Shown here: positions 5,313 through 59,250 of the stretch, one piece after another
Numbering within the stretch: position 1 is the stretch's first letter
Layout: every line of letters starts with the position of its first letter
IMG/VR virus record: IMGVR_UViG_3300025018_000005
Source: an uncultured virus (IMG/VR IMGVR_UViG_3300025018_000005)
Taxonomy: Duplodnaviria; Heunggongvirae; Uroviricota; Caudoviricetes
Length of the DNA stretch: 64,000 bases
Reading direction: 5' to 3' (one strand)
Made by a program: the position numbers and the translations under genes
Notes under the pieces: model-generated
What the model saw: the letters and a program-made list of their open reading frames with translations, nothing else
Database searches by the model: none
Told to the model about the DNA's origin: nothing

Positions 5313-6791
5313 TTGGTTGAAATGGAGAATAGTGTGGGCGATAGATTTTACGAGACAGACGATGAGATTAATGTCTTGAACACGGTTTTTAAGGACAAAC
5401 CTGAAGACTGGAAGGTAACTAGGAAATGGATTCACAGTAATCCAATGCAAGCAAAGACCGCAATAGCGACACTCTCCAATCAAGACCCTCGCTATCTTGA
5501 CATATTACACGATCCTGAACTTTGGTTGCGACCTGAGCAGCTTGTTGAGTGGGATGTTGAGACAATCCTATACCTAGCTGGTCGAGGATGGGGTAAGACA
5601 CATAGCTCAAGCAACATTCTGATCAAAGAAGCAATGAAAGAACCAAATCAGGTTATCGCTCTTTTTGGTGCAGACTTTAACAGTTTAAAGCGAGTCAATT
5701 GGGGCGGTGACTCAGGGATACTGAAAGCCATACACCCAAGCATATTAAAAAACAGCGTATTTAACAAGTCAGATTTAAGTCTTGTCCTACCAAATGGAAC
5801 GCAGATACTATCGTTCAGTGCTGAGAGTAGCGGCAAGAGCCGTGGTATGTCTGCACACATGGTGGTAGCCGACGAATTAGCGTCTTGGACTTACGCTCAA
5901 GAGGCGCTGGATGATGCTAGACTTATTCTCCGATCAGGTAGAAATCCGCGACTCCTTATTACGACAACACCAAGACCAACTCAAGTTATTAAAGATCTAG
6001 CAAGCGATCCTGATGTGAAGCTCATTAAGGGTATAACATCAATGAATTATTTTCTACCAGCTTCTTATGAGGAAGGTCTAAAAAAGAAGTTAACAGAGAG
6101 ACTATATAGGCAGGAGTGTCTTGCGGAAATCCTTGATGATAATCTATTCGCTATGTTCCAGATGAATGATATTATGGCAACTAGGGTTAAGCCAAGTGAT
6201 TTTGATTTTGATTCCTTGCGTCGAATAGTAGTTGGTGTTGATCCAGCGGTAACTGCAAATGAAAATTCTGACTTGACCGGTATAGTCGTTGTTGGGCAAG
6301 ACAACACAGGGCATTGCTACGTACTTGAGGATGCGAGTATGCAGATGGCATCCCCTGAGAAGTGGGCTGATGAAGTGATACGTATGTATAACAAATACAA
6401 CAAATATCCAGCCGATGTAAGAATTGTAGCAGAGAAAAACCAAGGCGGTGACATGGTTTCTACCATTATTCGCAACGCAGCTAAACGCAAAATGTCTATG
6501 ATTATGCCTCCTGTTAAGCTTGTTCACGCAACAAAAGGTAAAGAGGTTCGCGCTGAGCCAATTGCAGCCGTGTATGAGCGACATGAAGTTCACCACGTTG
6601 GTGAGTTTAGTGATCTTGAGCTTGAGATGACAAACTGGAACCCAACGGAAAAGAATTCAAAGAGCCCAGACCGTATGGACGCCCTTTGTTGGGCTTGTAC
6701 TGAGCTAACAAAATTTGGCACAACTCAGCTTGATAGTGGGTACAACTTATCAGCAGAGACTGGCTCAAGCAATCCGTACTCAACATACTAA
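5313..6791 (+). CDS. terL: terminase large subunit
   Basis: Walker A AGRGWGKT, Walker B VVADE, motif III ITTTP, nuclease VGVDPA...SPDRMDA. Confidence 0.95.
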   Translation: MVEMENSVGDRFYETDDEINVLNTVFKDKPEDWKVTRKWIHSNPMQAKTAIATLSNQDPRYLDILHDPELWLRPEQLVEWDVETILYLAGRGWGKTHSSSNILIKEAMKEPNQVIALFGADFNSLKRVNWGGDSGILKAIHPSILKNSVFNKSDLSLVLPNGTQILSFSAESSGKSRGMSAHMVVADELASWTYAQEALDDARLILRSGRNPRLLITTTPRPTQVIKDLASDPDVKLIKGITSMNYFLPASYEEGLKKKLTERLYRQECLAEILDDNLFAMFQMNDIMATRVKPSDFDFDSLRRIVVGVDPAVTANENSDLTGIVVVGQDNTGHCYVLEDASMQMASPEKWADEVIRMYNKYNKYPADVRIVAEKNQGGDMVSTIIRNAAKRKMSMIMPPVKLVHATKGKEVRAEPIAAVYERHEVHHVGEFSDLELEMTNWNPTEKNSKSPDRMDALCWACTELTKFGTTQLDSGYNLSAETGSSNPYSTY

Positions 6792-49697: not shown

Positions 49698-49943
49698 GTG
49701 GAAGTAATCTTATTCAGCGCATCTTGGTGCGCACCATGCAAGCAATTAAAAGAATTCACAAACAACAATGGAATGAGTTTTAGTAAGGTCTACGACATAG
49801 ATACTGATGAAGGCTCTGAAGCAGCACGTAAGTTTGGTGTAAGGGGTGTGCCGACAACGATTGCTATGAAAGATGGCGGTGAATCCAAGCGAGTCATTGG
49901 GTTTAATATTAACGAGATAAACGAAATTTTTAAGGGGATTTGA
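49698..49943 (+). CDS. thioredoxin/glutaredoxin-like protein
   Basis: FSASWCAPCK, VRGVPT; adjacent to the reductase. Confidence 0.88.
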   Translation: MEVILFSASWCAPCKQLKEFTNNNGMSFSKVYDIDTDEGSEAARKFGVRGVPTTIAMKDGGESKRVIGFNINEINEIFKGI

Positions 49944-52900
49944 TGGACTATACAAATGAAATGAGCAAGTACAACTTCATAAAAGGGTATTCAGCTTGGA
50001 ATGACAAAGAAGGCCGCTACGAGACTTGGGATGAGGCTGTTGATCGTGTCATGGATATGCACAAGGAAAAGTATAAAAGCAAAATAAGCTTAAGTGAGCG
50101 TCTTTCAGATTTGATTGATTTTGCAACTCACGCTTACAAGGATAAGTTTTGCTTGGCATCACAGCGAAGTCTTCAATTTGGCGGTGAACCAATGTTGCGT
50201 AAAAATGGAAGGCAATTTAATTGTCTTACCAGTTATGCTGATCGACCATCGTTTTTCCAAGACACGATGTGGTGGTTATTGCAAGGTGGTGGCGTTGGTT
50301 TTAGCGTACAAAAGCATCACGTGAAAAAATTACCGAAAATAAAGCAGCGATCAGGAGAGGCGAAAATCTTCGTTGTCCCCGATACCATCGAAGGATGGTC
50401 TGATGCAATTGGTGTTTTAATGTCATCTTATTTTGAAGGTGGCGGTACTTTCAAGGAGTATTCTGGGTGTAATGTTCTTTTTGATTTCAGTGAGATTCGA
50501 CCAGAGGGATCACTTATTTCTGGCGGGTTTAAAGCTCCTGGCCCTGACGGATTACGTGCTTCGCTAAATAAAATCGAATCGGTGATTGAAAGCGCAATAA
50601 AAGATGGAGATGTATTGCGTCCAATTCATGTGTACGACATTGTAATGCACACATCTGATGCTGTACTTTCAGGCGGGATTCGAAGAAGCGCAAGTATCTC
50701 AATTTGCAGTCCAGATGACGAAGAAATGATCGAAGCTAAAACTGGTGACTGGTTTGTTAAAAACCCTCAGAGAGCAAGATCAAATAATTCAGTGATGCTG
50801 GTAAGGAGTGAGACAGCGAGAGAAACTTATGGAAAGCTTTTTAAATCAATAAAGCAGTTTGGAGAGCCGGGAATTATTTGGAGCGAAAGCACCGAATTTA
50901 TGTTCAATCCGTTAGCCAATTAAATAACGTGCGGATTTAAAACCTTCTCTGATTGACTTGGACGGTGATGACACACTTACAGGGCGCAAGGGTAAAGCCA
51001 GCGTGAGAGACTAAGCGAGAGGGGCATCTTAATAGGTGCGAGCGATAGTCCAGCGCACAGCAAGAAAGTCATTGATACTTGCGGTGTGAGGCGTAGAAAT
51101 ATCATTCATGCCTGTATCTCCTTCTGGAGTCAGTGCATTTCAGGGATGTAACCTTTATTGAGTAGAGGTTGTAAAAGAGGGTGAATTGCTGGGAAGCCTA
51201 AGTGCGTAGCATAAGGTAATCAGCAGCCAAGCTTTAGGGGCGACCCTTTAGAAGGTTCAACGACTAGAAGATACCTACTCTTTATGAGTAGATGAACTTC
51301 GTACTCTCAAGTGAGAGGAAGCACCCTCCACCAAGTAGCGATTGGTGATGATATAGTCTGAGCTGCATGGAAACATGCAGGAGTTTCTTCATAGATCAAC
51401 ATGAGGGTGATTTATGAGAAAAAATAGGAATGGGTATTTTGAGACTGAGACACATAGAGAATGTACTATGTGCGGCTGTATTTTTGAGAAGAGAAAGTTT
51501 GGTTGCAGAATGAAAATATGCAAACCATGCAATTCAAAAAGAGTCAAATCGCAGACTCCTGAAAAAAGAATGTGGCAAAGAGCGAAACAGAGAGCAAGAG
51601 CAAAAGGAATGGAATCTACTCTTGAGGTTGAAGATATATTTTTGCCAAAAGTATGTCCTATATTAGGGATTGAGTTAAAGGTTAATTCTGGAAGGCCAGG
51701 AGCTTATGATAGCTCGTATTCTTTAGATAGAATTGACAACTCAAAAGGGTATACACAAGATAATATCCAAGTAATAAGCCAAATAGCAAATGCTATGAAG
51801 GCAAATGCAAGTGCAGAGCAATTATTGTTATTTGCAAAATACATACTAAAAACCTATGAAGAAACCGGAGAGGATTAACGACCCTCTTTCAACATAACTG
51901 ACCGAATGTAATGGAGGCGTAATGAATAACATGGAAAATGCAAAGAGGGCTGTGAAGGCTGCAACAATTATTGGGACGTTGCAAGCTGGTTACACAGATT
52001 TTGAATATGGAGACAAAGCAACTAAGGAGGCATTTGAGAAAGAAGCATTGCTTGGCGTAAGCATTACTGGGTGGATGGAGAATCCAGATTTTCTTTTCGA
52101 CGACGACAACATGAAATGCTTGGCTGAGTACGCAAAAGAAATTAACGCTGAGGTTGCCGACTTGATTGGCATCAACAAGGCTGCGAGAATAAGTTGCACA
52201 AAACCCGCTGGCAACTCGTCGGTATTGCTTGGCACTGCTTCAGGGATTCACCCTCACCATAGCAAGCGGTACTTCAGAAATATGCAGGCGAACGTTAATG
52301 AGGATGTACCAAAGGAATTTAAGCGAATAAATCCAGATGCTGTTGAAGACTCTGTATGGTCTGCGAGCGGGAAAGATGTTGTAATTTCATTCCCAATCAT
52401 AGCTCCAGAAGGCGCTAAGTTTAAAAAGGATTTAATGGGTGTTAAGCTTTTAGAGTACGTTAAAAAAGCACAGAACTCTTGGGTTGAGCATGGAACTAGA
52501 CCTGAGCTTGGCAATCACCCAATGTTGCGACACAACATCTCAAACACAATTACTGTTGATGATTGGGATGAGGTTGAGGAATATGTTTGGGAGAACAAGG
52601 AGAGCTTTGCTGGCATTAGCTTCCTTCCTCCGAGTGGAGACAAGGATTATGCTCAAGCACCATTTACAGAGGTAAAAACTGAGCAAGAAATAATCGATGA
52701 ATATGGAGTTGCATCGATGTTCGCATCAGGGTTAATTGTTGATGCGCTAAATGCTTATGAAGCTGACCTGTGGAGAGCTTGTGCTGTTGCGGATGGATCA
52801 AACCCAGATGGGAAGGCTGAACTAACTCATGCCACAAGTAAAAATGCTTTGAAGCGCGACTGGGTTCGTAGGTTCGATAAGTTTGCAGATAAGTATTTTG

Positions 52901-53082
52901 ATGGAGATAAGCGCCAAACAACTTACTTGTTAAAGGATGTGCATCTTCTTCATAAATGGGAGAATGTCACTAAAGCATTCAAGGCAATTGATTGGGAAAA
53001 TGCAGACATAAAGCCAAAGTACGTTGATGTTAATACGACAGGTGCGCAAGCTTGTTCTGGTGGAGTTTGCGAAATAGTATAA
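49943..53082 (+). CDS. nrdJ: ribonucleotide reductase, probably monomeric class II (B12-dependent); exons 49943-50912, 51091-51155, 51901-53082; 738 aa spliced
   Basis: FNC, GVGFSV, GGIRRSA, spliced NPCVEI...CNLTE, TKPAG, C-terminal CSGGVC; no beta-subunit gene in the window. Confidence 0.85.
50913..51090 (+). ncRNA. group I intron 1 (178 nt, no ORF)
   Basis: P1 AAUCCGU/GCGGAUU with U.G; P3 50943-49/51017-23; P7 GACUA/UAGUC; P8; P9; terminal G 51090; removal restores T|GC Cys. Confidence 0.9.
51156..51900 (+). ncRNA. group I intron 2 (745 nt, IA2-like)
   Basis: P1 AACCUU/GAGGUU; AAUUGCUGG and AAUCAGCAG; P3 GAGGGUG/CACCCUC; P7; two extra hairpins between P7 and P3'; P9 with GAAA loop; terminal G 51900. 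Confidence 0.93.
51414..51878 (+). CDS. intron-encoded HNH homing endonuclease
   Basis: N-terminal C..C/C..C; CPILG; SLDRIDNSKGY..DN..VIS..AN..K. Confidence 0.88.
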   Translation: MRKNRNGYFETETHRECTMCGCIFEKRKFGCRMKICKPCNSKRVKSQTPEKRMWQRAKQRARAKGMESTLEVEDIFLPKVCPILGIELKVNSGRPGAYDSSYSLDRIDNSKGYTQDNIQVISQIANAMKANASAEQLLLFAKYILKTYEETGED

Positions 53083-58162: not shown

Positions 58163-58432
58163 ATGAGTGGATTAGACTTGGGCCATTACCCAAAAAGCGG
58201 AGATGATGGCGATATAGCTGCAATAAGCTCTGAAAATGATTTGAAAATTGCAATGTATCGCCATAAAATAGATAGTCACAACAGTGAGATAGCAGTAACG
58301 GGTTTTTGTGCGTTTTGCGGCATTGAGATAGATGAAGGAAAGTTCTGCCCTCCAGACCACGAATATAATTATTCGTGTGCAAGTGAATATCAGCGGGAGC
58401 AGGATGCAAAGAAAAGAAACGGATTGGCGTAA
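58163..58432 (+). CDS. TraR/DksA-like zinc-finger protein
   Basis: DDGDIA tip, GFCAFCG.EI, FC...C...Q. Confidence 0.6.
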   Translation: MSGLDLGHYPKSGDDGDIAAISSENDLKIAMYRHKIDSHNSEIAVTGFCAFCGIEIDEGKFCPPDHEYNYSCASEYQREQDAKKRNGLA

Positions 58433-58501
58433 TTGGTGTTAGTGGTAGCATATCTGACTTCCAATCAGATGGGACGAGTTCGATACTCGTATTACGCTCC
58501 A
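58427..58501 (+). tRNA. tRNA-Gly(TCC)
   Basis: Acceptor GCGTAAT/ATTACGC, anticodon arm TCTGA-CTTCCAA-TCAGA, GTTCGA T-loop, encoded CCA. Confidence 0.93.
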
Positions 58502-58516
58502 AAATAGAGGAATGTT

Positions 58517-59173
58517 ATGAATAGGCTACACAGATTTAAAGCAAACCAAAAAGGAAATGACTATGTTGTCGGTGATATTCACGGTAACTACGATACCTTA
58601 ATGGATAAGCTTGATGAAATAGGTTTCGATAAGTCATCAGATCGACTGTTTTCTGTTGGCGATGTTATTGACCGTGGACCTAGGAACGTTGAGTGCTTGT
58701 CATTGCATTACGAGACGTGGTTTTTTGGCGTTCGAGGAAATCACGAGCAGATGATGTTTGATTCTGTTATTGGAAGCGGAGACGTACATACTTGGTTTGC
58801 TAATGGTGGTAGCTGGTTTGCCTTAGAGGACTCTGATGAGCTAAGAGCAACTATTCATGATTTATCAGAGAGATTACCATTAGGTATTGAAATTGATTAC
58901 GGCGATAAACTGATTGGGTTGGTTCATGCTGAGGTTCCATTTAGCAATTGGAGCAAGGCATTCGAGAACGACAGCTTTGCCGTAACAAACACCATCCTGT
59001 GGGCGAGAAGACGAATATCACGAGGATATGGTCATGACGTATCTGATATTGATCAGGTTTATGTAGGACATTCGTTTGTAGACGAGCCCAAAAATATAGG
59101 TAATGTACGATACATTGACACTGGAATGGGTTGGGCCGGAAACGCAAAGCTCACCATTGAGAAAATAAATTAA
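58517..59173 (+). CDS. NinI-like metallophosphoesterase (Ser/Thr phosphatase)
   Basis: GDIHG, GDVIDRG, RGNHE, VHA, GHS, IDTG. Confidence 0.92.
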   Translation: MNRLHRFKANQKGNDYVVGDIHGNYDTLMDKLDEIGFDKSSDRLFSVGDVIDRGPRNVECLSLHYETWFFGVRGNHEQMMFDSVIGSGDVHTWFANGGSWFALEDSDELRATIHDLSERLPLGIEIDYGDKLIGLVHAEVPFSNWSKAFENDSFAVTNTILWARRRISRGYGHDVSDIDQVYVGHSFVDEPKNIGNVRYIDTGMGWAGNAKLTIEKIN

Positions 59174-59250
59174 GGCCTGTAGCTTATTGGTAAAAGCACC
59201 ATACCTGATAAAGTGGAGATCGCTGGTTCGATTCCAGCGCGGGCGTATCA
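59173..59250 (+). tRNA. degenerate tRNA-Ile(GAT)
   Basis: AGGCCTGTAGCT start, CTGATAA loop, GCTGG-TTCGATT-CCAGC T arm; mismatched acceptor and anticodon stems, ends ATCA. Confidence 0.6.

Follow-up and report, generated by a model that had tools for sequence, protein, structure and literature searches.

Two unrelated group I introns very probably flank a 65-nucleotide active-site exon in the class II ribonucleotide reductase gene of an uncultured phage

The window analyzed here is a stretch of 64,000 nucleotides (nt) from an uncultured virus of the Caudoviricetes (IMG/VR record IMGVR_UViG_3300025018_000005), and our subject is its ribonucleotide reductase gene (Table 1; all positions are those of the window). 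Read without splicing, the plus strand holds two reductase open reading frames (ORFs) in compatible frames, one starting at 49940/49943 and stopping at 50921-50923, just past ...EFMFNPLAN, and the other at 51922-53082. We conclude that both very probably belong to a single gene for an adenosylcobalamin-type enzyme (class II, RTPR-like) that is split in three by two unrelated group I introns. The anatomy of the locus, its homology, the covariation of the RNA helices, and the continuous spliced frame are direct observations.

Table 1. Features of the reductase locus, with the evidence for each assignment
Feature	Position	Strand	Evidence
Exon 1, class II (RTPR-like) ribonucleotide reductase	49943..50912	+	TIGR02505 RTPR 1.5e-31; PF21995; phrog_367 3.6e-50
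Intron 1, predicted compact group I intron, 178 nt, ORF-less	50913..51090	+	Homologs at same codon; RNAalifold; pair counts; per-sequence helices; minimum free energy fold
Exon 2, 65 nt	51091..51155	+	Sequence; spliced frame; alignment
Intron 2, group I intron, 745 nt	51156..51900	+	Rfam RF00028; homologous introns L100, L101
Intron-2 endonuclease gene (putative), 154 aa	51414..51878	+	phrog_3322 endonuclease 2.8e-34; phrog_1035 endonuclease VII 1.3e-17
Exon 3 (TECNGG... to C-terminal CSGGVCEIV)	51901..53082	+	TIGR02505 3.3e-11; phrog_367 1.1e-27
Thioredoxin/glutaredoxin-like redoxin gene	49698..49943	+	Pfam Thioredoxin 1e-12; NCBIfam thioredoxin 1.3e-13; ORF list

The last residues that exon 1 encodes in full are Asn-Pro; one further base follows, the T that opens the catalytic Cys codon (...TTC AAT CCG T at 50912). 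Exon 2, which runs GCGTAGAA...TGTAACCTT, completes that codon (T^GC, with the caret here and below marking a splice or insertion site) and yields VEISFMPVSPSGVSAFQGCNL, thus encoding the catalytic Cys and Glu and the second redox Cys. Exon 3 begins with ACCGAATGT at 51901, and gene callers would start it at the ATG at 51922. Joined by script, the three exons give 2217 nt, a multiple of three, and a product of 738 residues with a terminal stop only, which reads ...EFMFNPCVEISFMPVSPSGVSAFQGCNLTECNGG... / FNPCVEISFMPVSPSGVSAFQGCNLTECNGG around the junctions and carries the motifs NPCVEI, GCNL, and C-terminal CSGGVC. Retention of intron 2 brings an early stop into the reductase frame, and skipping of exon 2 shifts the frame (...FNPYRM and a stop). 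Exon 2 makes sense only once both introns are removed. No plus-strand ORF of at least 40 amino acids in the ORF list covers it.

The best NCBIfam match for both exon 1 (profile positions 180-336) and exon 3 (476-678) was TIGR02505, each score lying under the curated full-length cutoff, and Pfam recognized the B12-RNR insertion domain (PF21995) in exon 1. By tblastn the spliced product aligned in one segment with each of three uninterrupted homologs, namely, those of Rhizobium phage RHph_I1_18 (residues 8-737, 54% identity), viral contig L006 (residues 7-736, 56.5%), and viral contig L007 (residues 7-737, 47%). A multiple alignment with the intron-less homologs is unbroken across both junctions; the NPCVEI and GCNL(T/V/C)E(C/L/I)NG columns match, with a one-residue length difference between the two motifs. 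The second-closest named relative is the reductase of Pseudaeromonas phage KLEP7 (53.6%), and a megablast search of the whole gene against phages gave no match.

When the PDB was searched with an uninterrupted homolog, the sole match was Lactobacillus leichmannii RTPR (1L1L, 3.7e-21), whose chain reads N406-P-C408-G-E410-I-S-L-A-N-G-E-P-C419-N-L (motif NPCGEISLANGEPCNL). Functional roles are assigned to NPCxE, CNL, and the C-terminal Cys pair in the RTPR literature; C408 is the thiyl-radical cysteine, and C419 pairs with C119. The program phmmer misaligned the two similar motifs (NPC and CNL) on 1L1L. The equivalences NPC=NPC and CNL=CNL were set by inspection, and the phage reductases carry an 8-residue insertion relative to 1L1L. 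In 1L1L numbering, exon 2 therefore supplies two-thirds of the codon equivalent to Cys408, together with the counterparts of Glu410 and of Cys419 in CNL.

These results agree with what the original prediction had proposed for the gene. The stop after ...MFNP-LAN is where it was placed; excision of the two introns produces the predicted 738-residue frame, with coordinates and translation exact; exon 2 completes the first Cys codon and holds the Glu and the second Cys, as both the spliced frame and the 1L1L alignment indicate; both removals are needed, and exon skipping is costly in the way foreseen; the ORF track does miss exon 2; and the spliced protein aligns continuously with RTPR-like reductases.

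Intron 2 starts with TATTGAG and ends with ATAACTG. The Rfam group I model RF00028 matched it over its full length (model 1-253) at 51146-51380 with 92.5 bits (E 1.9e-22; gathering score 50), an E value that excludes chance. The ribozyme core extends to 51380. P1 pairs 51150-51158 with 51162-51170, and the alignment with the model sets U51155, opposite G51165, at the consensus splice-site U. Between P7 and P3', the position of P7.1/P7.2 in subgroup IA, are 66 inserted nt with two hairpin-like stretches (pairing by eye). We read intron 2 as T4-like and probably of type IA, its endonuclease gene lying 3' of the core.

The closest relatives of the endonuclease ORF, in phages RHph_N3_13 (60.8%) and CRP-7 (50%), each lie between two coding sequences (CDS) labeled "partial ribonucleotide reductase," and RF00028 scores 83.6 and 79.2 bits on the respective introns. 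All three proteins share SLD(R/K)(I/V)D where HNH enzymes usually have His, and we regard the product of 51414-51878 as a putative homing endonuclease of HNH/endonuclease VII type. In RHph_N3_13 the intron endonuclease is labeled "Srd postulated decoy of host sigma factor." In the relatives the intron directly follows the codon for Cys (...TTCTGT^...^AAYTTA, C^NL; guide GCAGAA), and in the window it follows CNL (AACCTT^ACC; guide GAGGUU), which points to the same intron lineage at two sites 6 nt apart. The 3' ends are also alike. A terminal hairpin (51867-51873/51883-51889) keeps its complementarity with different arms, GGAGAGG/CCUCUUU in the window, CAGGG/CCCUG in CRP-7, and CGUGAGU/ACUUACG in RHph_N3_13, and is followed by a tail, AACAUAA(C/A)UG^, that reads AACAUAACUG^ in the window, where it ends at G51900, and in CRP-7, and AACAUAAAUG^ in RHph_N3_13. 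An 8-nt perfect complement between the P3 5' strand (51174-51181) and 51882-51889 is not conserved in CRP-7 or RHph_N3_13; the local hairpin fits better, and this long-range pairing was rejected.

Intron 1 starts with TAGCC and ends with GTGTGAG, the terminal G being 51090. Its P1 pairs 50906-50912 with 50931-50937, with U50912.G50931 at the splice site, and a 4-bp P10 (50927-50930/51091-51094, ACGU/GCGU) joins it to exon 2. The core comprises P3 (50943-50949/51017-51023), P4 (50957-50960/50980-50983), P5 (50964-50967/50974-50977), P6 (50984-50987/51001-51004), P7 (51009-51013/51046-51050, GACUA/UAGUC), and P8 (51024-51029/51034-51039), followed by P9 (51054-51064/51078-51088). Folded alone by minimum free energy, the window copy adopts P1, P3 to P6, P8, and P9. 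Because it lacks P2 and P7.1/7.2, intron 1 is of a different type from intron 2, and blastn between the two at E values up to 1e-3 detected no similarity.

The fold of intron 1 was examined across nine copies at the reductase site with 10-nt exon flanks (alignment A1; KLEP7 was left out as too divergent, L065 and L061 because of ORF insertions, and L094 as a near-duplicate of L070). RNAalifold predicted P1, P3, P4, P5, P6, and P8 independently, and the P7 pseudoknot was added. Over the resulting 35 pairs (P1 and P3 to P8; 315 cells), 98.1% are standard pairs and 15 of the 35 have changes on both sides. None of 500 column shuffles reached any of five measures, and sliding the partners by 1 to 3 columns reduced pairing to 32-46%. 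P1 is 6 to 8 bp long, with U.G at the splice site in all nine copies and compensatory changes between exon and guide (AAUCCAU/GUGGAUU, AAUGCCU/GGGCAUU, and CUUGCGU/GCGCAAG). P10, of 1 to 6 bp, changes with each copy's own 3' exon, and every copy ends in G. P9, assessed sequence by sequence since its MAFFT alignment was inconsistent, is a hairpin of ∼9 to 11 bp in all nine copies, with differing sequences. A second alignment (A2) held 29 distinct family cores out of the 30 with a P7 3' strand within 260 nt, L092 being left out for its long insert. Pairing in P3, P4, P6, and P7 reaches 99.7%, and 6 of the 20 pairs have changed on both sides; a single measure of the five, that of further pair types, showed no excess over shuffles (384/500). 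That other phages have homologs of intron 1 at this codon, together with the covariation, excludes chance for intron 1, and the comparison supports the view that it behaves as a group I intron. Much of what the original prediction held about the two introns stands: each 5' splice site has its U.G pair and each intron its terminal G, the P3/P7 pairings are upheld by RF00028 in intron 2 and by covariation over nine copies in intron 1, and the introns are indeed of different types.

Homologs of intron 1 are widespread. By blastn it is 77% identical to sequence of Roseobacter phage CRP-118 that lies in a 400-nt gap separating two CDS labeled "ribonucleotide reductase"; there the exon ends with ...ACAAATCCGT and resumes with GCTCAGAAATC..., giving NPCSEI...FCNLTECVV; the splice positions are identical to those of the window, and there is no second intron. 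In the KLEP7 reductase gene, a 230-nt insert whose core is related follows AATCCGT, and the annotated start of KLEP7 gp197 lies inside this intron. Scanning IMG/VR for the P3-J3/4-P4 sequence AAAACCTTNNCTGATNGACTTGGA (21 fixed bases), which has one copy in the window and none expected by chance, gave 40 viral-contig loci, of which 35 are distinct. Guides and upstream exons differ among the 40, so the family inhabits several genes.

The window copy shares its place in the reductase Cys codon with copies in L059, L065, L068, L078, L086, L087, L092, L093, and KLEP7. In L059, L087, L092, and L093 the downstream exon matches the PF02867 reductase barrel (2e-62 to 2.1e-24), and these reductases are very different from the RTPR-like one. 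Insertion at the opening base of the codon for the catalytic Cys, AAYCCNT^GY, has thus recurred within the family, across reductase genes that differ greatly. ORF-less copies are 169 to 184 nt long, and that of L092 is 223 nt. Some members carry ORFs in peripheral loops (L065/L096/L018/L057, L061, L066, L067, and L085), the ORF of L065 having a GIY-YIG-like start (...YIYCEGYVGIT), and these suggest that the compact ribozyme also carries endonuclease genes.

Rfam gave no group I match for the intron 1-type copies in L001, L003, L018, and L036. The Rfam group I model has no ID/IE seeds, is incomplete, and may miss phage variants, according to a 2025 paper (PMC11878797). The only two matches at gathering among 20 family loci were RF00028 introns ∼1 kb from a family copy, at L077:2-244 (plus strand, 76.9 bits) and L071:120-388 (minus strand, 72.9 bits), which suggests other genes with two different intron types. 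Among prokaryote genomes (one per species, 185,579 species), a 24-nt family motif is rare and was found at only six loci (L102-L107); five are contigs of metagenome-assembled genomes and one is an isolate, Mesobacillus maritimus, where it probably lies in a prophage. A scan with the 16-mer GCGGATTTAAAACCTT gave 50 loci, only 8 of which showed blastn similarity beyond the seed; the short-match loci inspected by eye (five: L042, L056/L054, and L033/L013) were discarded as chance.

Occupancy differs among relatives. Both introns occur in the window and in the identical metagenome copies L004/L005, the intron 1 type alone in CRP-118, KLEP7, L078/L036, and L086, the intron 2 type alone in CRP-7 and RHph_N3_13, and neither in RHph_I1_18, L006, and L007. 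This pattern supports two independent invasions, the history that the original prediction had suggested. Further positions are also occupied. In L070/L094 the intron 1 family lies 5 nt downstream, after TGCGT^, with the guide changed to match, and in L061 apparently after the next codon, TGTGGT^, with an altered, matching guide, an inserted ORF, and a putative 3' end. On the minus strand of L036, a further insert of ∼830 nt with a LAGLIDADG-type ORF (ILGDGY..., MDDGW) follows ...YGEP^ (reverse-strand positions ∼575-1440); a 43-nt exon (GFIFTDNLEFTYNP plus T) separates it from the Cys-codon intron, and Rfam did not detect the insert. The reductase homolog of L008 has a 262-nt tblastn gap at 5953-6215 (query residues 648 to 663) without an Rfam match, which may be another insertion, near the C terminus. 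The active-site stretch (GEP...NPC...CNL) is a hot spot, the relatives examined showing no fewer than four sites of insertion and a probable fifth.

Several observations weigh against this interpretation. At 178 nt and without P2, intron 1 is unusually small for a group I intron and may not splice unaided. The original prediction named group I covariance models as a check; RF00028 recovers intron 2 but gave no match for intron 1 at E values up to 10, and the matches of intron 1 to the Rfam families FTHFS (E 0.4) and bxd_6 (E 4.5) were put down to chance. Across the family, none of 20 intron 1-type copies reached gathering in Rfam, and six loci searched at E values up to 1 matched no family at all. 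The fold energy of the window copy is no better than that of shuffles (z -0.48; 57 of 200 at least as stable). Of the 24 read runs listed, two are RNA, with small shares, and two RNA and two DNA runs were compared with the window. The two metatranscriptome runs contained no exon joint, only five short contigs (49900-49957, 51152-51326, 51270-51434, 51657-51807, and 52469-52684), which may derive from DNA and therefore carry no weight for or against splicing. One DNA contig joining 51089 to 51344 with five mismatches looks like a related intron of another organism and was set aside. Taken together, these points could describe a decayed or protein-dependent remnant that does not self-splice, in which case the reductase would be a pseudogene or poorly expressed. 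We consider this improbable, given that all core helices are intact in the window copy, that the exons remain open and conserved, and that 169 to 184 nt is the norm for the family; moreover, pairing of 98 to 99.7% kept with compensatory changes across many phages argues for selection on the fold.

For intron 2, the relatives lie 6 nt upstream, inspection revealed no convincing P10, and the endonuclease ORF matches nothing in Pfam or NCBIfam and has the motif SLDRIDNSKGY...N...N, with no His at the expected spot. Given the position of the relatives, only four features place the window site, namely, the reading frame, U.G pairing, the final G of the intron, and the alignment of the protein, and one could imagine other boundaries, such as the C^NL site that CRP-7 and RHph_N3_13 use after TGT or another 3' splice site. 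Splicing after TGT would, however, delete the conserved Asn-Leu, which could not be regained because the 3' end lacks AAC CTN; the Rfam alignment puts the splice-site U at 51155; and no junction other than 51155^51901 combines U.G with a terminal G while keeping the frame open and CNLTE conserved, which makes other boundaries highly unlikely. Just as remote is an account without splicing, in which ORFs 49940-50923 and 51922-53082 are translated apart and assemble, like the NrdA of Aeromonas phage Aeh1 split by mobE. Gene callers and the GenBank records of relatives do show two reductase CDS, and a functional split NrdA is reported in Dwivedi 2013 (PMC3653736), but neither ORF would contain the catalytic Cys, the Glu, or the Cys of CNL, all three being confined to exon 2, which lacks a start codon, and both inserts hold ribozyme cores with splice-site pairings.

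If the gene is one unit in three exons, its pre-mRNA would lose both introns by guanosine-initiated self-splicing, leaving the junctions CCGT^GCGTA and AACCTT^ACCGAA and the 738-residue enzyme; both ribozymes would be active and self-splice with exogenous guanosine. Each intron has an in-frame stop no more than 11 nt from its 5' splice site (TAA 50921-50923 and TGA 51159-51161), and these would keep ribosomes off the intron cores. Early in-frame stops play a like role in T4 introns. The intron-2 endonuclease would cut an intron-less allele 65 nt away from the intron 1 site, and the ORF-less intron 1 may then spread by co-conversion. Intron 1 lies within co-conversion range of such a break, so the two introns could move together.

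The Azoarcus tRNA-Ile group I intron, of ∼205 nt, is often cited as the smallest self-splicing one. Intron 1 resembles it in its compact, bacterial-type core and short periphery, and the P7-P3 junction motifs are similar, whereas the intron 1 family is smaller (169 to 184 nt), has no P2, and resides in phage protein genes. Should its members prove able to splice without help, their size would lie below that of the natural group I ribozymes usually cited as smallest. It is possible, although we hold the idea only tentatively, that intron 1 represents a minimal group I subclass not yet catalogued, of 169 to 184 nt, without P2 and P7.1/7.2, with a near-invariant P3-J3/4-P4, common in phage contigs at several host-gene sites, rare in prokaryote genomes, and missed by Rfam, whose ORF-less copy here spreads by means of the neighboring intron's endonuclease. 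A compact family overlooked by Rfam is the only part of our results with some claim to novelty.

In the phage T4 nrdD (sunY) intron, the ORF lies downstream of the catalytic core. Intron 2 of the window has its parts in the same order, a core that is probably of type IA, then the endonuclease ORF, and then a short 3' tail with the splice site, but resides in another gene class at another insertion site and has an endonuclease of the phrog_3322 family. Other close systems are the homologous reductases of CRP-118 and KLEP7, with the intron 1 type at the identical codon position, and of CRP-7 and RHph_N3_13, with the intron 2 type and a homologous endonuclease 6 nt upstream; each of the four has one of the two introns, compared to both in the window.

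Two introns are nothing out of the ordinary in a phage reductase gene. Dwivedi 2013 (PMC3653736) reports that 16 of 128 phage genomes have split reductase genes, describes two group I introns near conserved residues in Twort nrdE and three introns plus an intein in Brochothrix A9 nrdE, and, in the part available, does not present the split nrdJ genes of phiYS40 and P60 as intron cases. Like Twort nrdE, the window gene encodes a phage reductase large subunit and has two group I introns close to functional residues, one of them with an endonuclease, here putatively of HNH type. It differs in that Twort nrdE is a class Ib gene of a Gram-positive myovirus, whereas here the gene is RTPR-like class II and the introns are unrelated and 65 nt apart; splicing is proven for Twort nrdE, whereas here it is predicted. 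The three-intron ORF of Twort (Landthaler and Shub 1999, as described in Edgell 2011) likewise has short internal exons and a possible exon-skipped by-product, but its introns are mutually similar, whereas ours are unrelated and skipping shifts the frame. We found no published description of introns in phage class II reductase genes in a search of titles and abstract openings with most subscription journals outside its coverage, which is weak evidence of absence.

Elsewhere, the window encodes a terminase, a portal, a major head protein, a tape measure protein, a helicase, a primase, a thymidylate synthase, a clamp-like protein, an RNA ligase, and two tRNAs, as expected of a tailed phage, and many aquifer metagenome runs contain this region. 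An intron in the terminase gene was considered and rejected, as that ORF is complete. The tRNA genes (58427-58498 and 59173-59247) flank a NinI-like Ser/Thr phosphatase ORF (58517-59173), the second beginning at the last base of this ORF. Upstream of the reductase, the stop of the redoxin gene overlaps the reductase start, and the redoxin is likely the reductant of the reductase.

Gene callers and GenBank records split genes of this kind into two "partial" CDS and lose the exon with the catalytic residues, so that surveys of phage reductases undercount and misclassify them. Four deposited phage genomes are affected, OR420741 (L001), OM654377 (L003), MN988507 (L100), and MK613349 (L101), in each of which the reductase is annotated as two CDS with no intron. 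Intron censuses built on RF00028 miss the compact phage family because it scores nothing with that model. For the phage itself, the arrangement would mean that its deoxynucleotide supply depends on two independent ribozymes within 65 nt.

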